From Candidatus Nanoarchaeia archaeon (lineage in GTDB: Archaea; Nanobdellota; Nanobdellia; Woesearchaeales; GW2011-AR9): 64,000 nt of DNA. The notes beneath the pieces are model-generated. The model did not search any database, was not told the DNA's origin, and saw only the letters and a program-made list of their open reading frames with translations. The position numbers were made by a program, and so were the translations under genes. Each line of letters begins with the position of its first letter. The first letter of the stretch is position 1. Below, in pieces: positions 13,311 through 33,390 of this stretch. The stretch is from positions 11,763 through 75,762 of the forward strand of contig DATDTM010000018.1 in assembly GCA_035290865.1 (NCBI GenBank), in the 5' to 3' direction.

Positions 13311-13909
13311 TTATTTTTCTCCTTTTTTTGTTCAGCCAGCTCTTCCCAATCATATATTTTATCAGTAAGCACGGCGTCAACCGGATTATCTTTTAAGATT
13401 TCTTTAACCGACTCGATTTCGTTCCGATTTAATAATTCTGGGGAAACTATGCAGAGTTTAAAATATTTTCTAAGAGTCTTGAAAGCATCATGTTCAACCG
13501 GTAAATGGGTCAGATTATCTACAAAAACCCATTCTAATTTTCCTTTTAAGTTAAGGCAGGTCTCAATACTTTCCATCTCAGAGAAACGAACCGCAATCTT
13601 ACTAATCCCCTGATTCACTAATTTAAAAATGAAAGGGGGAGTTACGTCAAGAAGAAAATAATCTCTAATCCTAAATTTATCCATTAATCCAATCACTAGT
13701 CTCTCTATTCCTTCGCACTTAATGTTTAGAATGAGATAAGCATGATGATAATGTTTTAGAAACTCTTCAAAATCTTCCCCCTCAAGGAAAGGTTCATGAT
13801 TAAGAATTATTCGATTATTGTATGCTCTTAAATCAACTTCAACTCCGAATTTTTTAGGGGTATTTTGGAGTTGTCCGATGGAATTTATTTGATGGTTTAT
13901 AATTAACAT
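13304..13909 (-). CDS. hypothetical protein (weak resemblance to glycerophosphodiester-phosphodiesterase-like TIM barrel)
   Basis: ORF in an operonic overlap chain (overlaps both neighbours by 7 nt). No decisive motif. Confidence 0.4.
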   Translation of the reverse strand: MLIINHQINSIGQLQNTPKKFGVEVDLRAYNNRIILNHEPFLEGEDFEEFLKHYHHAYLILNIKCEGIERLVIGLMDKFRIRDYFLLDVTPPFIFKLVNQGISKIAVRFSEMESIETCLNLKGKLEWVFVDNLTHLPVEHDAFKTLRKYFKLCIVSPELLNRNEIESVKEILKDNPVDAVLTDKIYDWEELAEQKKEKNKC

Positions 13910-14595
13910 AGATTCACCCTCTTTTCTCCAGCCAAAATTAGTTGATCTCTTTGTTTTAACATCTCCAAATTATTATTAAAACCTTCCCGAGTAAATAACC
14001 CAGAAGTACCGCCCACAAATATTTCCACACCCACTTTATTTAATAATTCTAGAGTATCTATATTTATCGAACCATCCCCAATTAATTTTAAACGAGGATT
14101 TTTCTCTTTGGAAAAGACATTAAACTGCCTAATTTTATCTAAGACTGATCTTTCAAAGGTTTGCCCCGTAAAGCCTGGCTGGACGGTCATAAACATAACA
14201 TAATCCAGCTTTTCAAGGTAAGGAAAAATCTTTTCCACCGGAGTTTTTGGATTTATTACTATCCCCACTTCCAGATTATGTCTCTTTACTAAGTCAATAA
14301 CGTAATTAGGATCCTCATCAGATTCTATATGGAAATAAATGATGTTTATTCCTGCCTCTTTTAGCCGTTTTATATATTTGGAAGGTTTACAGACCATTAA
14401 ATGGGCATCAAATTTTTTATGGGTTAATTTTCTCAGTTCTTGGATCAAATCAAAATTTAGGGCGATATTTTCTACAAATTCCCCATCCATAATATCAAAG
14501 TGGAACATATCGATCCCGGCTTTGAGCAAGGCATGAATGTCCCGATACAGATAAAGCTGGCTGGCGCACATTAAAGAAGCTGTAATTATTACCAT
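13903..14595 (-). CDS. ribulose-phosphate 3-epimerase family protein (pentulose/hexulose-phosphate 3-epimerase)
   Basis: HFDIMDGEFVENI, DAHLMV, MTVQPGFTGQTF, GDGSIN, FVGGTSGLF. These match the RPE signature blocks (HxDxMDGxFVPN, DVHLMV, MxVxPGFGGQxF, VDGGV, VxGSxxF). Confidence 0.75.
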   Translation of the reverse strand: MVIITASLMCASQLYLYRDIHALLKAGIDMFHFDIMDGEFVENIALNFDLIQELRKLTHKKFDAHLMVCKPSKYIKRLKEAGINIIYFHIESDEDPNYVIDLVKRHNLEVGIVINPKTPVEKIFPYLEKLDYVMFMTVQPGFTGQTFERSVLDKIRQFNVFSKEKNPRLKLIGDGSINIDTLELLNKVGVEIFVGGTSGLFTREGFNNNLEMLKQRDQLILAGEKRVNLC

Positions 14596-26327: not shown

Positions 26328-27347
26328 TTATCTTTTTAATCTCAACTCTATCTCCGCCTCTTTCAGATCATGCTCGACCATCAACCGAACTAATTCTTTA
26401 AATTTTATTTTAGGTGCGAAACCGAAAACTCTCTTAGCTTTGGAATTATCTCCCAAAAGAGTGCTGGTCTGGCTAGGACGGGCGAAACGAGGATCAAATT
26501 TAACATGATCGTCAGGGTTTAATCCTACCACTTTAAAAGCCTCTTCCAGCCATTCCCGCACAGAATGTACTTCTCCAGTACAAATAATATAATCCTCGGC
26601 TTTGGGCTGCTGCATTAGTGTCCAGGCAGCTTCCATGTATTCCTTGGCGTAGCCAAAATCTATTTTAGTGTCCAAATTTCCCAGGTATAATTCTGTTTGC
26701 AGGCCCAGTTTGATCCTGGCAGCGGCAGTGGTTATCTTTCTGGTAACATAATCTGCAGTCCTTCTCGGCGATTCGTGATTGTAGAATATTCCGGTACAGA
26801 CATGCAATCCAAAAACATCACGATAAAACTTGCAGAGAGTATAGGCAAAGACTTTGGCTGCAGCATAAGGGCTTTGAGGCCTGAAAGCAGTATTCTCATT
26901 TTGAGGGATCTCTACTGCCTGGCCGAACATATTAGAGGAAACCGGCTGAAAATATTTTATTTTAGGATTGACCTGTTTAATAATCTCTAAAATCCGGCAA
27001 ACTGCTGCTCCGGTGATATCACAGGAATAATCTGGAGAGGCGAAACTCCAGGTGACATGATCCTGGTCAGCTTCGTTATAAATCTCGTCTGGCTTAACTT
27101 CGTTGATGATGCGATAAATGGAAGTAGTATCGGCCAAATCTCCTTTATGCAGGATGATTTTTTCTTCTTTATCTTTGATTAAATGATTAATGTTAATAGT
27201 ATTCCCGGTAGCGGATTTTCTAATCAAACCATGAACTTCATAGCCTTTTTCTAAGAGTACTTCCGCAAGGTATGAACCGTATGTCTCGCTCTATGCGTCT
27301 TGACCGGTTATACCCAAGATTAGGGCTTTTTTTTGTTGAGCAGCCAT
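26328..27347 (-). pseudogene. second GDP-mannose 4,6-dehydratase paralog, disrupted: in-frame TAG plus a 6-codon insertion inside the NADP-binding GxxGxxG motif
   Basis: Minus-strand ATG 27347 gives [49 protein letters not shown]..., with the TAG at 27293..27291. The track ORF starts only at the downstream MIRKS. The rest is full-length gmd-like (NHESPRR, SPYAAAKV), ~50% identical to the intact gmd. Confidence 0.6.
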
Positions 27348-27410
27348 AATATTTCAAAAGATGATTAATTTATAAAATTATTGGATTTCAGGAACTTAAT
27401 TTTGTAAAAT

Positions 27411-28700
27411 TTATTCCACAATCCTAAACTCCGGCAGGGGCACGATCCATTTTCCGCCTTTTAATCTCCATTCAGTTTCCCTTGCATACATCTCTTTAAA
27501 GAAAGCATAAGGTAAAACTAAAAAATAATCCGGCTGAGCTTTCCTAGCTTCTTCCTCAGTAAGAATAGGAATTCCTGTTCCGACCGTATATCGCTCGAAT
27601 TTCCAGGGGCTTCTCTCTGAGGCAGCGGTAATTAAGGTATGGTCTAAGCCATAATACTGTAAGATGACATTACCTTTAGTGGAAGCGCCATAAACCCAGA
27701 CTTTTTTTCCTCGGGCAGTTTCCTGCTTGATGAAATCCACGCATTTCTTCTTGTTCTGTTCCAGGTGCTGGAAAAAGTCTAAATATACTTGCTTATTGCG
27801 GTAATCTTTCTCCTCAGACTTAACTTTAGCGATACGTTCTGCTGCTCCTGATGGGATATTGATTAAGACCCCTTTCTTTTTTGCATACAAACGATAACTT
27901 CCGCCATTGACATCATTAATTTCAATATCAAAGATTTCCAAACCGTTTTTTCCAAACAAATGTTCTAAAGAGGAAAAAGAATAATATTCTAGATGTTCGT
28001 GGCAAATATTTCCTACATCATTTCCATCCAGCATATTCTTCAGGCACATCAATTGAGCGATAAAAACTCCATCTTCAGTTAAGGCCCTGGCTGCATCTGC
28101 GATGAACTGATTAGGGTCTTCCATATCATAAAACATGCCTAGAGCAGTAATGATTTTAGCTTTTTTCCCGACTACTGACCAATACTTATCATAGATCCAA
28201 AAATCGTTGAGGAAATGAGTAATTCCCTGCTTTCCTTCTTCTGCAAGGTTAGTGGCTGGCTCTATGCCAATGGTAATCAAATTAGGAACAGTAAATTGCC
28301 TCAATAAAGTTCCATCATTAGAGCCAATATCCAAAACTACGTCTCCCGACTTCAGATTGAACCTTTTTTCTGCGATTTCAGCAATCTCTTTAAGAGCTTT
28401 TTTCATGGTCTCAGTTACCCCGGACTTGTACCAATAGAATCTGCTATAGAGAAGCTCTTGGGGAGCAGTATGCTTTAACTGCACTAAAGTACAATTCTCG
28501 CAGAAAACCATCTCTAAAGGAGCTTTTCTTCCTGTAGAAATATTTTCTTTGGTGGGGAAATCGTTGAGGAATTGGGTGCCTAAAGAGAACAAAGGGCTTA
28601 ATTTAGGAGAATTACAAACCCGGCAGGTAGTGCGAGTAGTATAATTCGATCCTACAGCTGGTTTATCTTTTTCTGAATTTTGATTCACTTTTTCCACCAT
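27411..28700 (-). CDS. NDP-sugar C-methyltransferase-like (Zn-ribbon + class I SAM MTase + C-methyltransferase C-terminal domain)
   Basis: N-terminal CRVCNS...CENC zinc ribbon. VVLDIGSNDGTLL SAM motif I. Architecture of the TylC3/Coq5-unrelated C-MTase family. Confidence 0.65.
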   Translation of the reverse strand: MVEKVNQNSEKDKPAVGSNYTTRTTCRVCNSPKLSPLFSLGTQFLNDFPTKENISTGRKAPLEMVFCENCTLVQLKHTAPQELLYSRFYWYKSGVTETMKKALKEIAEIAEKRFNLKSGDVVLDIGSNDGTLLRQFTVPNLITIGIEPATNLAEEGKQGITHFLNDFWIYDKYWSVVGKKAKIITALGMFYDMEDPNQFIADAARALTEDGVFIAQLMCLKNMLDGNDVGNICHEHLEYYSFSSLEHLFGKNGLEIFDIEINDVNGGSYRLYAKKKGVLINIPSGAAERIAKVKSEEKDYRNKQVYLDFFQHLEQNKKKCVDFIKQETARGKKVWVYGASTKGNVILQYYGLDHTLITAASERSPWKFERYTVGTGIPILTEEEARKAQPDYFLVLPYAFFKEMYARETEWRLKGGKWIVPLPEFRIVE

Positions 28701-28730
28701 TTTAACTTAAACTTCGGGGGAGAAAGATTA

Positions 28731-29156
28731 TTAATAAAGGTTTTGGTTCTCCACTCTATTGAACACCAATCTCTTATTCAAGAAATAATTCAATATTGAG
28801 ATGATCAAAGCCACCAGTATTATCGAAAGCAGGTAATACACTCTTAGAATTACGCTTAATAAATAAACTCCCACCCAATTCAGAGCACTGATGAATAAGA
28901 TCACGATAACAAACTTCAGGAAATGACCTTTCTTTCTAAAAGTAATCATAGAATGATAGCCAAACAAAAATAAAATTTCTAGACAAAGAGCAAGAGCAAA
29001 AGAGAGCATATGCCATAACTGGAAAAATTCAGTTAAGAGATAAGTCACCGTTAGATTCAGGAGCAGGCTCAAACCACCGCCGAAAAGGAATTTAAAGTAG
29101 CGGAACCAATTTTCTTTAATCATGGAAATAAGTTCACTCATTTTTCTAATCCCCAC
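28731..29156 (-). CDS. GtrA-family small membrane protein (polyprenyl-phosphate sugar translocation accessory)
   Basis: 141 aa, 4 TM, KxxxxFxxVGxxxxLxNL-like start (FRYFKFLFGGGLSLLLNLTVTYLL). 19-nt overlap with the upstream GT2. Confidence 0.6.
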   Translation of the reverse strand: MGIRKMSELISMIKENWFRYFKFLFGGGLSLLLNLTVTYLLTEFFQLWHMLSFALALCLEILFLFGYHSMITFRKKGHFLKFVIVILFISALNWVGVYLLSVILRVYYLLSIILVALIISILNYFLNKRLVFNRVENQNLY

Positions 29157-29878
29157 CTTAATTTCAAGACTTTTAAACCGTAATCTTTACCCAAGCGGAA
29201 TAAAGTCCATAAATCCCCGTCAGACTTAGAGACCCCTCCTGGACGGATCTGATATTTACAAGGAACCTCGATGATCTTGAACTTATTCTTTTTGGCTTTA
29301 TAGGCAAACTCGATAAAATATTCGCCAAAACCTTTTCGGGAGAAGTGAACTTTATCAAATACTTCTTTTCTTACTGCGGCAAAGCCAGAGGTATAATCTC
29401 TTACTCCCCAACCTAAGAGTAACATAGCATAAGCATTGATCAAGATGCTTAATAAAACTCGGAACTTGGGGCGAGGATCTGCGCCGCCTTTTACATATCT
29501 AGAAGCGATAGCTACATCGTATTGATCTAATTTTGAAACCAATCCAAGAATCTCCTCAGGGGATAAACCTAAATCGCAGTCTAGCCAGACGATGACTTTG
29601 CCTTTAGCAGCGCGAATTCCGTCGTCTAAAGCTGAGGAAAGGCCTTTTTCTTTGATCCTGCGGATTAATCTTACTTTCGGATGGTGTAATTCTTCAACTA
29701 ATTTCCAGGTCTGGTCAGGAGAATTATCGTCAACCACAATTATCTCTAATAATTGAGAGCCTAAACTATTAGAAATACGTTCGATAGCCTCTTGGATATT
29801 AGCCCGCTCATTATAAGAAGGTAGAACTACTGAAACAAAATGGGTTAAATCTTTAATCTTATTTATTTCTGAATCCAA
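29138..29878 (-). CDS. family 2 glycosyltransferase (polyprenyl-phosphate glycosyltransferase, DPM1/GtrB-like)
   Basis: VSVVLPSYNERANI...IIVVDDNSPD...WLDCDL (DxD). Confidence 0.8.
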   Translation of the reverse strand: MDSEINKIKDLTHFVSVVLPSYNERANIQEAIERISNSLGSQLLEIIVVDDNSPDQTWKLVEELHHPKVRLIRRIKEKGLSSALDDGIRAAKGKVIVWLDCDLGLSPEEILGLVSKLDQYDVAIASRYVKGGADPRPKFRVLLSILINAYAMLLLGWGVRDYTSGFAAVRKEVFDKVHFSRKGFGEYFIEFAYKAKKNKFKIIEVPCKYQIRPGGVSKSDGDLWTLFRLGKDYGLKVLKLRWGLEK

Positions 29879-30591
29879 GCTACCGTCACCCAGCTTAATT
29901 TTCTTAAAGGGGGGATGACCTGCATTAAAAAGTTATCTATTCTGGAAAGAGCATGAAAGAGCTTGCTGACAATTCTTTTGTTCTTGATAAGAAAAAACAA
30001 AAATAAGAAAAAACAGGAAAAGAGGTAAAATTCCCTGTGTTTAGCTTGGATTTTCTTTAGGAACTTAAAAGGGATGTATTCCGGTCGGGAATGGCGGTAA
30101 GGAGAGAAAGTGCGATAAGGAAAAGCGAAGAGCCAATGCTTTAAAGTTTCAATAAAGATTAATTTTCCTCCAGGCTTGAGCACACGCAGGCTTTCTTGGA
30201 TAACCTTGTCCTGATCTTCATCTTTAATGTGCATGAGCAGAGAATTGAAATAAACCAAATCAAAAGTATTCTCTTGAAAAGAAAGAGCCCGGGCATCCAT
30301 TTTCTTGACCTGAACCTGCCTGAAATTGTTCTCTGTAAGAACCTTTCTGGTCTCGGAGATGCTTTTTTCAGAGATATCAATAGCAGCCAATTCTGCCCCT
30401 TCCCTGCAAAAGAATAAAGCCTGGGCTCCGCTTCCACAGGCTATCTCTAATAATCTCTTATCTTTAATATCACCTAGCAATTGGTAAGAGAAATCCACTG
30501 CGCTTTTATGCATGAGATGATCAATCAGTTCGGTTTTATCTGTAAAAGAATCTGAATTCCAGACCTCATCCCAGAATCTTTCTTGGTTCAT
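29863..30591 (-). CDS. class I SAM-dependent methyltransferase
   Basis: LLEIACGSGAQALFF motif I. DISEKSI motif II. Confidence 0.7.
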   Translation of the reverse strand: MNQERFWDEVWNSDSFTDKTELIDHLMHKSAVDFSYQLLGDIKDKRLLEIACGSGAQALFFCREGAELAAIDISEKSISETRKVLTENNFRQVQVKKMDARALSFQENTFDLVYFNSLLMHIKDEDQDKVIQESLRVLKPGGKLIFIETLKHWLFAFPYRTFSPYRHSRPEYIPFKFLKKIQAKHREFYLFSCFFLFLFFLIKNKRIVSKLFHALSRIDNFLMQVIPPLRKLSWVTVAWIQK

Positions 30592-30622: not shown

Positions 30623-32929
30623 CTATCTTAACTCCTGAACCTCTTTAATCTTTTCCACAATAAATTCAATCTGCTCTTTAGTCAAGTGGCTGGAAGAGGG
30701 CAGATAAAAGCCTTTTCTTTCTAATTCATCTGAACCCGGATATTTTCCGGCGCAGTCAGGATAATTTGGTTTAGGAGAATTAAGGTACATCGGCTGCTTA
30801 TGCATGCCAATGAAGAAAGTCCTGGTTTCCACTCCCCGCTGTTCTAATCTTTCTCTCAACTGGGGCATGGTCTTACCAAAATCATCTTGGATTAAAACAC
30901 CATACATCCAATAAACGTTTTTAGCCCATTCAGCTTCCGGAGGAGTGGTTATTCCTTTTACACCGGCTAAAAGCTGATTGTACAACTGAGCATTATTCCT
31001 GCGAGCTTTCACTAATTCATCAATCCGCTCTAATTGGGCCAGGCCTATGGCCGCCTGCAGATTGGTTAGGCGATAATTGTAGCCTACTTTCGGATGGATA
31101 AATCTGGGCAGGCCAAAATAATGATTTCTTAATTTTTTCATTTCTTCGGCCCATTTATCGTTATTGGTTACGACCATCCCGCCTTCTCCACAATTATGAA
31201 CTAATATTCCGTGGGCAAAGTAATTATGATTATCAACAGTTTCAATATTATGTACTTTCCCGGAATAATTCTTTTTAATTATTTGGGATACTTTAACAAT
31301 CTTTACTTTTGGATTGTAGATAAAAGTTTTAATACGTTCAGATAAAATCTCTTTATTTTTTAGCTCATTCTCCCAGAGAATAAGTGAATCATAACCGCAA
31401 TTATTGTATCTTCTTCTGCGAAGATCATATTCTTCTGGTTTATGCCAGTAAGAGCCAAGTAAATCAATTACTTTGCGTTTTCCTTTCAGGTGAACGAAGT
31501 CAGGAATCAAGCGATCAATCCTTACTTTTAGCCGACAATCGCCATTATAACCAAATTCTCCAGGAAAATACTGCTCCAAGAAGTGCTGAAGGTGCTGTTC
31601 TGGTCTATTTGGTTTTAAGTTCATCCCTTGAAGGTAATGTTCCCAATAAGAATCTTTCTCCATAGCACGAAGAACTCCTTTGCTTACCTTCTCCCGATAA
31701 GAGAAATCTTGCCCTAAAACTAAAGCGGAAAGACGCTTCTTTTCTCTAATCGCTGGATCTGCACCTATTTCTTTCATCTTTTGGCTGAAAGCACTGCGAT
31801 CCTCTGCAGAAAGGGCAGACCATCTCTCTTTTTGAGACTGGCTAAATTTCTTTCTCGTTTCCTTAGAAGGTTTTCTTCCTCTATTTGCTAGACTGATCTT
31901 AGCGGCTACCTGAGACCAATCGATTTTAGCATAAGTTGAATCTTCTTCCGCATGCCTTTGAGAAATAATCAAAGCATGTTCTTTTCTTTTTCTCTCTGCG
32001 ACTTCTGGCCCCATAATCTCTGTATAATTCTTTCCGGTGTACATCTCTTTATAGGCTAGACCACGATAGATATATTGGATTACTTCATCCCCTAGACTTA
32101 ATTGGTCTGCACGAACCCAGCCTTTACTTAAGACATAAACTGGATGATTGGGAGTAGTCTGAAAATGATTATGATTAGAGAAAGATATTTCTAACAAATT
32201 TCCATTATAATCCCTCTTAAAAGTTTTAGTCACTTTCTTATATTCTTTCTGGGCGGTCTTAAGATTATAGGTCAGTACTGAGTCCCCTACTTTAAGCTCA
32301 GATATTTTTTTCATCCTGCTTAATCCTTTGCCGCTTTTTGGAGGCTCGATCAGAATTTTGGTCTCAGGAGGAAAACAGGTCACAATTTTATTGGCATAGA
32401 AACTAAAAGTAGCAATATCGCTTAAGCTACCTGTTTTTCTACCTTTGTATTCTGCGCCGTGCGCTTCAGCTGCATCTTCAATCACATAAAGATTATGCTT
32501 ATCCGCAATTCTTTTGACTTTATCCATATCTACCGGATGGCCATAAGTATGCACGACCATGATCGCTTTAGTTCGGGGAGTGATCTTCTCTTCGATCTTA
32601 TCGATATCAATATTCCAAGTATCCAATTCAGAATCTACTAAGACTGGTTTAGCTCCGGCATAAATCACTCCATTACAAGAAGCAGCCATGGTAAAAGTAG
32701 GAATGATTATTTCATCTCCCGGGCCAATACCCAAAGCTTCTATGGCCAGATGGATAGCTACTGTGCCATTGCAGCAGCTCACCCCATGTTTAACAGTACA
32801 ATATTCTGCAAATTTCTCTTCGAATTTCTGCAAGTAAGATCCGGCAGAAGAAATCCAGCCGGTCTTGATCGTATCAGTAACATACTTCAATTCATTGCCT
32901 TGTAAAGTTGGTTCACAGACGGGTATCAT
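30623..32929 (-). CDS. DegT/DnrJ/EryC1/ArnB-family PLP-dependent sugar aminotransferase, interrupted by an intein
   Basis: N-extein 184 aa (…DAAEAHGAEYKG…FSFYANKIVT), then Cys1; C-extein CGEGGMVVTNN…. The K of SFYANK is the PLP lysine position. Exteins together are ~373 aa, normal for DegT. Confidence 0.85.
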   Translation of the reverse strand: MIPVCEPTLQGNELKYVTDTIKTGWISSAGSYLQKFEEKFAEYCTVKHGVSCCNGTVAIHLAIEALGIGPGDEIIIPTFTMAASCNGVIYAGAKPVLVDSELDTWNIDIDKIEEKITPRTKAIMVVHTYGHPVDMDKVKRIADKHNLYVIEDAAEAHGAEYKGRKTGSLSDIATFSFYANKIVTCFPPETKILIEPPKSGKGLSRMKKISELKVGDSVLTYNLKTAQKEYKKVTKTFKRDYNGNLLEISFSNHNHFQTTPNHPVYVLSKGWVRADQLSLGDEVIQYIYRGLAYKEMYTGKNYTEIMGPEVAERKRKEHALIISQRHAEEDSTYAKIDWSQVAAKISLANRGRKPSKETRKKFSQSQKERWSALSAEDRSAFSQKMKEIGADPAIREKKRLSALVLGQDFSYREKVSKGVLRAMEKDSYWEHYLQGMNLKPNRPEQHLQHFLEQYFPGEFGYNGDCRLKVRIDRLIPDFVHLKGKRKVIDLLGSYWHKPEEYDLRRRRYNNCGYDSLILWENELKNKEILSERIKTFIYNPKVKIVKVSQIIKKNYSGKVHNIETVDNHNYFAHGILVHNCGEGGMVVTNNDKWAEEMKKLRNHYFGLPRFIHPKVGYNYRLTNLQAAIGLAQLERIDELVKARRNNAQLYNQLLAGVKGITTPPEAEWAKNVYWMYGVLIQDDFGKTMPQLRERLEQRGVETRTFFIGMHKQPMYLNSPKPNYPDCAGKYPGSDELERKGFYLPSSSHLTKEQIEFIVEKIKEVQELR
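31193..32377 (-). mobile_element. intein (395 aa) with a putative nested endonuclease domain
   Basis: Starts CFPPETKIL (block A Cys1), block B TPNHP, ends ...AHGILVHN followed by +1 Cys (31190..31192). Internal segment ...IPDFVHLKGKRKVIDLLGSYWH resembles Vsr/DUF559-type PD-(D/E)XK endonucleases rather than LAGLIDADG. Confidence 0.75.
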
Positions 32930-33390
32930 TTTTTATCACCTAGTATTCTTTTTTCCTCTTCCTTGCCCCGATAAGGGCCTTGTTTTATCTCTACCATTTC
33001 AGTTTCTTCTAAAAAAGTAAAGCCATGGGCAGTATTTAAAACAATAGAATCACCGTTCTGGACGATGATCTCTTTGATTTTTTTATCTTGATTTAATTCA
33101 TCATACAAATCAATCTTTAATCTTCCGGAAATTAGGTGAAAAAATTCCTGTATTGGAAAATTCTTTAATTCTTTAAAGGGAATATGGGCATGGGCAGGGA
33201 TGGTCTCTTCCTTTTGGCGATGATGGATTCCCAGCTGGAAAGGAAAATCATCCGGGCTGGCGAAAAGCATTTTCTTTCCTGATTCTTTTAATTCTGAGAA
33301 AGCTTTTCCGCGGATGATTACAGCTAAGAGCTTGCCGTTATGTTCTACTCTTTCTATGGAATGGGCGAAATTATCTTCTCTCTGAACCAT
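32926..33390 (-). CDS. cupin-fold protein, possible NDP-4-keto-6-deoxyhexose 3,4-ketoisomerase (FdtA/WxcM-like)
   Basis: ~150-aa cupin with a His pair (HAHIPF), directly upstream of the DegT aminotransferase with a 4-nt overlap, the classical FdtA–FdtB arrangement. Motif match is weak. Confidence 0.45.
   Translation of the reverse strand: MVQREDNFAHSIERVEHNGKLLAVIIRGKAFSELKESGKKMLFASPDDFPFQLGIHHRQKEETIPAHAHIPFKELKNFPIQEFFHLISGRLKIDLYDELNQDKKIKEIIVQNGDSIVLNTAHGFTFLEETEMVEIKQGPYRGKEEEKRILGDKK

Follow-up and report, generated by a model that had tools for sequence, protein, structure and literature searches.

A probable class 1 intein with an in-frame EDxHD/Vsr-like homing endonuclease in a DegT-family aminotransferase gene of a Candidatus Nanoarchaeia archaeon

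The window analysed here is a 64,000-nucleotide stretch of a Candidatus Nanoarchaeia archaeon genome (contig DATDTM010000018.1). Its minus strand carries a 768-amino-acid (aa) open reading frame (ORF) in which a DegT-family sugar aminotransferase is parted in two by an intein, with a nuclease core of EDxHD/Vsr-like type in the same frame. The precursor is laid out as follows, with the grounds for each feature in brackets.

30623..32929, minus strand: precursor ORF, DegT-family sugar aminotransferase plus intein, 768 aa (ORF and profile matches).
32378..32929, minus strand: N-extein, aa 1-184, with the C-terminal end FSFYANK(181)IVT (alignment to 3bn1).
31193..32377, minus strand: intein, aa 185-579 (395 aa), from Cys1 through TPNH (259-262) to His578-Asn579 (profiles, alignment and model).
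32066..32377, minus strand: Hint N-terminal splicing lobe, aa 185-288, beta-rich, with blocks A and B and a predicted local distance difference test score (pLDDT) of about 90 (alignment and model).
31652..32065, minus strand: all-helical basic linker, aa 289-426, with a NUMOD3-like motif (ANRGRKPSKETRKKFS) below threshold (alignment, model and profile).
31316..31651, minus strand: EDxHD/Vsr-like (DUF559) nuclease core, aa 427-538 (112 aa) (profiles, alignment and AlphaFold (AF2) model).
31193..31315, minus strand: Hint C-terminal splicing lobe, aa 539-579, with blocks F and G, NHNYFAHGILVHN (alignment and model).
30623..31192, minus strand: C-extein, aa 580-768 plus stop, from the +1 Cys580 (CGEGGM...) (alignments).

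The two exteins add up to 373 aa (184+189). On the precursor, Pfam DegT_DnrJ_EryC1 (PF01041) matches at E=2.9e-118 in two stretches that flank Intein_splicing, and DegT-type NCBIfam models, which also match in two stretches, match in a single one once the intein is removed. The best solved relatives are GDP-perosamine synthases of the 3bn1/3dr4 type, and the alignment with them spans the whole extein (E=3e-94). In 3bn1, chain residues 9-191 and 192-333 align to query residues 2-184 and 580-719, so that the two halves meet between 191 and 192 with nothing lost or gained and the extein junction is seamless. The closest syntenic genome, at the GTDB locus L002 (Candidatus Woesearchaeota archaeon SI075_bin52), has an uninterrupted aminotransferase gene; its product is 75% identical to the joined extein, without a gap at the junction, and within the junction motif NKIxT/xGEGG (a slash marks the insertion point) the two differ solely by Thr to Cys at +1.

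The same motif, as NKIxT-(T/C)GEGG, is present in 15 intein-less alleles. In the DNA, the sequence of 14 intein-less alleles is ...AAYAARATNATNACN/ACNGGNGARGG (NKIIT/TGEGG) and the L002-type site is TTTTATGCTAATAAAATTATTACT/ACTGGAGAAGGTGGGATGGTT, while two intein-bearing alleles read T/Cys...Asn/Cys-GEGG; the junction peptide expected after splicing would be ...FYANKIVTCGEGGM.... One intein-less DegT gene, at 8001-9107 of L035 (contig CAZRCV010000003), reads NKILT-CGEGG, with Cys at +1 where the 14 others have Thr; this Cys may be the scar of a precise intein loss, or a pre-adapted target.

The insertion point lies between K+3 and K+4 of K181 (nt 32387-32389), the first intein residue being K+4. 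We take K181 to be the pyridoxal phosphate (PLP)-lysine, from the ArnB/Per alignment ranges and the textbook SF(H/Y)xxK motif. Since its gene cluster also encodes a GDP-mannose 4,6-dehydratase, the most plausible reading of the extein is a GDP-4-keto-6-deoxymannose (perosamine-type) aminotransferase. The substrate assignment stays provisional, since the extein reaches none of the NCBIfam equivalog cut-offs, the top model, that of the LegC family, scoring 350 bits where its cut-off is 420.

In its sequence the insert is a class 1 intein throughout, with Cys185, T259-P-N-H262, H578-N579 and the +1 Cys580 all in place. Pfam Intein_splicing (PF14890) matches at E=1e-21 and NCBIfam TIGR01445 (intein_Nterm) at E=3.8e-9, and 18 aligned inteins show no variation at C1, at the block B T and H or in the C-terminal G-I-L-V-H-N. 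The AF2 model of the intein (pLDDT 81) has, in intein numbering, a beta-rich N-lobe (1-102), a helical region (105-250), an alpha/beta domain (258-354) and a beta C-lobe (358-395); its top Foldseek matches, at probability 1.0, are the solved inteins of RadA, the Ssp DnaB mini-intein and PI-PfuI. An earlier note, made from the letters of this DNA, had described an aminotransferase split by an intein at the PLP-lysine, leaving the strand unstated, and had named an extein alignment and an intein-domain search as checks. The ORF, the place of the insertion and its identity as an intein are borne out by both checks, through the clean excision against 3bn1 and L002 and the two profile matches above. 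Extein and intein sizes were exact, and every string that it quoted is found: FSFYANKIVT (aa 175-184), Cys185, TPNHP (259-263), VHN (577-579), CGEGG (580-584) and, in the nuclease core, IPDFVHLKGKRKVIDLLGSYWH (475-496).

In the core, E444, D477 (nt 31499-31501) and H496 (nt 31442-31444) are conserved, as is D489, for which many alleles have Glu; further on, W519 is conserved at 90% or more, and the next residue, E520, is E or D in most alleles. The core was aligned with 21 relatives (22 cores in all), leaving out five related inteins with Lys, or in one case Tyr, at the His position. Invariant in this alignment, in core numbering, are E18, P50, D51, F52, I62, G66, H70 and G86. The 22-core profile matches the homing endonuclease I-Bth0305I (3r3p) at 6.2e-6, followed by Vsr (1cw0/1vsr) at about 5e-4 and, at 0.18, by 3hrl, a DUF559 structure. 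Pfam DUF559 (PF04480) matches the whole protein at E=2.9e-4 (21.1 bits against a gathering score of 20.6) and the isolated core at E=1.3e-5 (25.4 bits), and 14 of the 22 cores pass it; Pfam Vsr (PF03852) is touched by a single core of the 22, at E=0.0088. The AF2 model of the core alone has a pLDDT of 90, and its best Foldseek match is the catalytic domain of 3r3p (probability 1.0, TM 0.65/0.73), with 3hrl ranking fourth.

In the profile alignment D477 and H496 (core D51 and H70) align with D51 and H69 of Vsr. The 3r3p construct of I-Bth0305I carries inactivating mutations at D196 and H213, the latter a putative general base (PMC3239194); read by way of Vsr, these two residues would correspond to core D51 and H70. 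The extra Glu of EDxHD, at the position of Vsr Phe62 (H-7), is Glu in 13 of the 22 cores and Asp in the other 9, including D489 of the window. An acidic residue at H+4, E500 in the window, is conserved in most alleles and lies in the region that the profile aligns to D222 of I-Bth0305I, in an uncertain register; it is probably the second metal ligand, equivalent to Vsr D97 and I-Bth0305I D222. Four inteins (P0054, P0125, P0126 and P0129) have YS.YWK (Y.K in P0129) in place of FG.YWH, which puts Lys at the general-base His position, and have lost the downstream W-E motif; P0128 has Tyr there. This subgroup spans different host genes and may represent decay, or a shift to Lys-based PD-(D/E)xK chemistry.

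The helical linker is the most variable part of the intein and is presumed to be the DNA-recognition module. NUMOD3 is found at E<=1 in 4 of 20 allele linkers (best 0.0011), and reaches significance in the free-standing proteins P0146, P0212, P0157, P0132 and P0134 and the intein-bearing P0139, with none in P0148. The layout of the module matches that of EDxHD homing endonucleases, in that the presumed DNA-binding region sits N-terminal to the Vsr-like catalytic domain (PMC2677866, PMC3239194).

At least 30 intein alleles occupy this DegT site. One of them, L081, is 88% identical and in full synteny with the window. Clustering of the exteins interleaves intein-plus and intein-minus sequences, and P0024 shares 34% extein identity with other alleles, its intein 47-53%; together these patterns indicate horizontal movement. 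Two alleles, P0026 and P0127, are mini-inteins from which linker and nuclease have been cleanly lost, which argues that the nuclease module is unnecessary for splicing. Inteins of this type also occupy a second DegT site, in P0054, and are found in other hosts: GHMP kinase, a TPP-dependent E1, cupin, GT2 glycosyltransferase, GDP-mannose dehydratase and DnaE. Relatives of the GDP-mannose dehydratase (44% identity) and GT2 (34%) of the window host the family in other metagenomes (P0153/P0129), and the GDP-mannose dehydratase intein interrupts the catalytic SPYA/AK (YxxxK) motif. In a JGI metagenome the 2724-aa P0138, a DnaE-type polymerase (PHP, Pol III alpha, finger and HHH domains) with a C-terminal uracil-DNA glycosylase domain, contains four inteins, each with the same Vsr-like nuclease core; P0139 contains two.

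An exhaustive profile search with the nuclease core returned 9,684 cluster representatives. The 150 best, of median length 273 aa, have a C-terminal core, on which grounds they are taken as free-standing genes, and 14 of these 150 are intein-embedded, 9 of them at the DegT CGEGG site. Among four free-standing relatives whose N-terminal regions were scanned, NUMOD3 occurs in three and a ROS/MucR zinc finger in two, while one has no Pfam match. At the identical DegT point, NKIxT/xGEGG, L017 (Hadarchaeales) and the metagenomic P0035 and P0048 carry a LAGLIDADG intein with Ser1 and +1 Thr. It shows no sequence similarity to the window intein (BLASTP E=4.1), so a swap of LAGLIDADG and EDxHD domains at the shared site was rejected; the two types are independent invasions, and the site is a repeated target.

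We consider it highly probable that the interrupted gene encodes a perosamine-synthase-like DegT aminotransferase and that its insert is a class 1 intein whose homing endonuclease, of EDxHD/Vsr-like type, is in frame. Several points weigh against this reading. Splicing, DNA cleavage and target recognition are all deduced from sequence. The closest intein-free allele found has only about 75% extein identity, which makes recent homing no more than a supposition, and vertical inheritance with repeated loss could be the source of part of the patchiness. At the 'E' position of EDxHD the window has Asp (VIDLLG), a conservative replacement that it shares with several other alleles, and the third acidic residue (Vsr D97, I-Bth0305I D222) is placed at E500 by alignment alone. 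The NUMOD3 match of the window linker falls below threshold (E=0.27) and is not claimed as a NUMOD3 domain; DNA recognition by the linker stays presumptive for this reason.

The distance to intein-free alleles and the Asp also speak for the strongest alternative, which we regard as unlikely: an intein that is fixed and vertically inherited, with a nuclease that is no longer homing and a domain kept for splicing support, DNA binding or a maturase-like or regulatory role. In close alleles, too, intein identity follows extein identity (83% vs 93%; 62% vs 73%), and the Lys-for-His subgroup shows that the domain can outlast changes in its active site. Against a retired nuclease, none of the 22 aligned cores departs from the catalytic Asp or His (the five Lys/Tyr inteins having been excluded beforehand), alleles that lose the nuclease drop the module whole to become mini-inteins, and both the interleaved presence and absence and the P0024 intein, more alike than its extein, point to movement. 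Between the window and the 88%-identical allele, the proportions of nonsynonymous and synonymous differences (pN/pS) are 0.041/0.556 for the nuclease core, 0.039/0.487 for the extein and 0.135/0.477 for the linker, so the core is constrained as strongly as the enzyme and the linker more loosely, although a synonymous distance (dS) of about 0.8-1.9 is high and leaves the dN/dS values rough, a further point against.

Very improbable is an insert that does not splice, whether a Hint-type or BIL/PT-HINT domain, a native domain of a subfamily or the mark of a disrupted pseudogene, with no functional aminotransferase. Pfam PT-HINT (E=2e-11) and Hint (E=2.8e-4) do match, and at an active site a failure to splice would kill the enzyme. 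These matches are confined to the N-terminal lobe that all Hint domains share, however, whereas the full set of intein residues is invariant, including the C-terminal His-Asn and the +1 Cys. More than 20 alleles keep an unbroken reading frame, excision yields a gap-free match to the orthologue, and the extein is strongly purified despite the insert (the pN of 0.039 against pS of 0.487 given above). That the real homing endonuclease is antisense or out of frame, as reported for Vsr-like enzymes in some actinobacteriophage inteins (bioRxiv 10.1101/2025.01.02.630785), and the in-frame likeness incidental is hardly credible: the intein does contain a 93-aa ORF at 31384..31665 on the plus strand, rejected as a hidden endonuclease because it matches no Pfam family (best E=0.18), but the Vsr-like core lies in the sense frame, contiguous with both Hint lobes, with a pLDDT of 90 and protein-level conservation across alleles and host genes.

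If the element is indeed a class 1 intein with a homing endonuclease, the following course can be proposed. The 768-aa precursor is almost certainly inactive, because 395 residues part the PLP-lysine K181 from the TGEGG loop that should follow it. An N-S acyl shift at Cys185 would be followed by trans-thioesterification onto Cys580; Asn579 would next cyclise with the help of His578, and an S-N shift would then yield the 373-aa enzyme, with Cys at the junction where Thr is usual. The released intein would act as a site-specific DNA endonuclease, in which recognition of the intein-less ...AAYAARATNATNACN/ACNGGNGARGGNGG... allele would fall to the variable, helical, NUMOD-like linker and its cutting to the conserved Vsr-like core (Asp477, Asp/Glu489, His496 and the acidic residue near 500), and recombinational repair off an intein-bearing allele would copy the intein together with its +1 Cys codon.

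The nearest known system is the EDxHD family, named when I-Bth0305I was characterised (Taylor et al. 2011, PMC3239194) and also treated by Dassa et al. 2009 (PMC2677866). I-Bth0305I (3r3p) is the best match to the core both by sequence profile and by predicted fold, and the family shares with the core the metal-binding Asp, the general-base His, the extra acidic residue at the Vsr-Phe62 position, a NUMOD-type DNA-binding region N-terminal to the catalytic domain (presumed in the window, where NUMOD3 is sub-threshold) and a tie to self-splicing elements in conserved genes. Known EDxHD enzymes are, however, separate ORFs, free-standing between split-intein halves, in group I introns or stand-alone, and their hosts are phage replication and repair genes, whereas here the nuclease is in frame within a contiguous intein and the hosts are archaeal metabolic genes. 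I-Bth0305I also has NUMOD2/helix-turn-helix repeats where relatives of the window module have NUMOD3-type motifs, and identity to 3r3p is about 21%. A 2025 preprint states that reports of Vsr-like endonucleases had been confined to split inteins, and adds antisense ones in actinobacteriophages (bioRxiv 10.1101/2025.01.02.630785). Those inteins are likewise contiguous and associated with a Vsr-like/EDxHD nuclease, but the nuclease is a separate protein of the opposite strand in phage hosts, as opposed to a sense-frame part of the intein on an archaeal chromosome.

With E. coli Vsr (1cw0, 1vsr) and DUF559 the core shares the fold and the PDF...G..WH catalytic signature, GSYWH in the window aligning with GCFWH in Vsr. 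It differs from Vsr in being embedded in an intein, with no link to Dcm or mismatch repair, and in the extra acidic residue at the Phe62 position; the zinc-binding Cys residues of Vsr, at what we take to be their positions, have no counterpart. The core thus appears to work like Vsr without being its orthologue. LAGLIDADG inteins (PI-PfuI, PI-SceI and those at the DegT site) have the same order of Hint-N, in-frame endonuclease and Hint-C and presumably the same life cycle, but another endonuclease fold; at the DegT site (L017/P0035/P0048) they also differ in an unrelated Hint sequence and in Ser1 with +1 Thr, as against Cys1 with +1 Cys here. The extein shares the PLP-lysine motif with GDP-perosamine synthase (Caulobacter, 3bn1/3dr4) and other DegT enzymes and departs from them in its junction Cys, in place of Thr.

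To our knowledge, in-frame intein endonucleases have been described as LAGLIDADG or HNH. In the open-access literature, where absence is no proof, we found no description of an in-frame Vsr-like/EDxHD endonuclease in a contiguous intein, nor of any intein in a DegT aminotransferase. Inteins in sugar-nucleotide metabolism have precedents in the Methanocaldococcus UDP-glucose dehydrogenase and GlmS inteins of InBase. Another lies outside replication and repair in gmd of Thermosynechococcus, a different host gene and site; the paper's section on inteins names an EDxHD-family 'DUF559-containing gene' without detail, and the endonuclease is not stated to be in-frame EDxHD (PMC9403480). The earlier note had called the nuclease Vsr/DUF559-like rather than LAGLIDADG or HNH, which profile, DUF559 and Foldseek results uphold and refine to EDxHD (I-Bth0305I), in the Vsr-like branch of the PD-(D/E)xK fold. 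Its further claim of a new insertion site stands in part: the site is new to the searchable literature, but databases already hold it, with dozens of alleles in metagenomes, the LAGLIDADG intein and some proteins that automatic annotation at JGI already labels 'transaminase/intein/homing endonuclease'.

Around the aminotransferase lie genes that give it a glycan-biosynthesis context, together with a TrmB regulator, an AsnB homologue and an MFS transporter.

32926-33390: WbuC-like cupin ORF (weak match), 154 aa, upstream of the aminotransferase with a 4-nt overlap.
26328..30591, minus strand: downstream genes for a SAM-methyltransferase, a GT2 glycosyltransferase, a GtrA-like protein, a sugar C-methyltransferase and GDP-mannose 4,6-dehydratase.
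29138-29878, minus strand: the GT2 glycosyltransferase.
27299-27347, minus strand: GDP-mannose 4,6-dehydratase exon 1.
27281-27298, minus strand: 18-nt insert after GITGQD, with a TAG codon.
26328-27280, minus strand: GDP-mannose 4,6-dehydratase exon 2.

The gene order, without the SAM-methyltransferase, is repeated in L002, where the neighbouring proteins are 57-84% identical. On the strength of this synteny the source is most likely a Woesearchaeota-like DPANN archaeon; Rfam and tRNA scans of the window yielded no taxonomic information. Many of the closest intein-less aminotransferase homologues (P0016-P0023, P0027, P0028) have an N-terminal NUDIX fusion; the 154-aa ORF was considered as a separated NUDIX domain and rejected, as it matches the cupin instead.

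The dehydratase gene is uninterrupted in six relatives, and the sister loci L081 (about 14440-14470) and L099 (1531-1561) have 17 nt at the position of the insert, which would shift the frame. When the RNA is folded with its exons, the insert and its flanks form, from the outside inwards, a helix between the two exons, a short central helix set between two 3-nt bulges, and a hairpin. The window has GUC/GAC in the central helix, as against GCC/GGU in L081, with one compensatory change of U-A to C-G. By manual reading, cuts at the canonical bulge positions give exactly GGU CAA GAC GGU UCA UAC (GQDGSY). The joined product is 83% identical to the L002 dehydratase, with no gap in the alignment, and a comparison of the two interrupted alleles shows strong purifying selection on exon 2 (pN 0.036, pS 0.456). 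The insert looks like a candidate archaeal bulge-helix-bulge mRNA intron. Such introns were first reported in cbf5 of Crenarchaeota (PMC2738675), and in the literature searched we found none described other than those. A metagenome scan for further alleles gave one true match, identical to L081, and 19 chance matches. In L081 a free-standing NUMOD3+LAGLIDADG_2 endonuclease gene (13555-14445) lies directly upstream of the dehydratase and runs in frame into exon 1, an arrangement that resembles 'collaborative homing', in which a free-standing endonuclease is paired with a site-protecting intron. The window has no counterpart of this gene, with just 63 nt between 27348 and 27410.

Beyond this locus we propose tentatively, and with a little less than even confidence, that the gene represents a large, so far undescribed clade of contiguous inteins with an in-frame NUMOD-plus-EDxHD module, born by capture of one among thousands of free-standing archaeal endonuclease genes and colonising active-site motifs of nucleotide-sugar and glycan enzymes (DegT, GDP-mannose dehydratase, GT2, GHMP kinase, cupin) as well as DnaE in DPANN and other uncultured lineages. 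If so, the glycan cluster of the window would be a hotspot for several kinds of homing element, since its GDP-mannose dehydratase gene has the bulge-helix-bulge mini-intron and a sister genome has the LAGLIDADG gene beside it.

An in-frame EDxHD intein would fill a step in the proposed route from free-standing endonuclease genes to parts of inteins. Inteins and homing endonucleases serve as tools for protein ligation, conditional splicing and genome cutting, and the alleles form a natural set of variants for experiments (full, mini and His-to-Lys forms at many host sites). The finding widens the known host range of inteins to surface-glycan enzymes of poorly known archaea. Since the insertion falls in the catalytic lysine loop, activity of the enzyme would depend on splicing, and splicing as a post-translational control of glycan synthesis is a testable idea.

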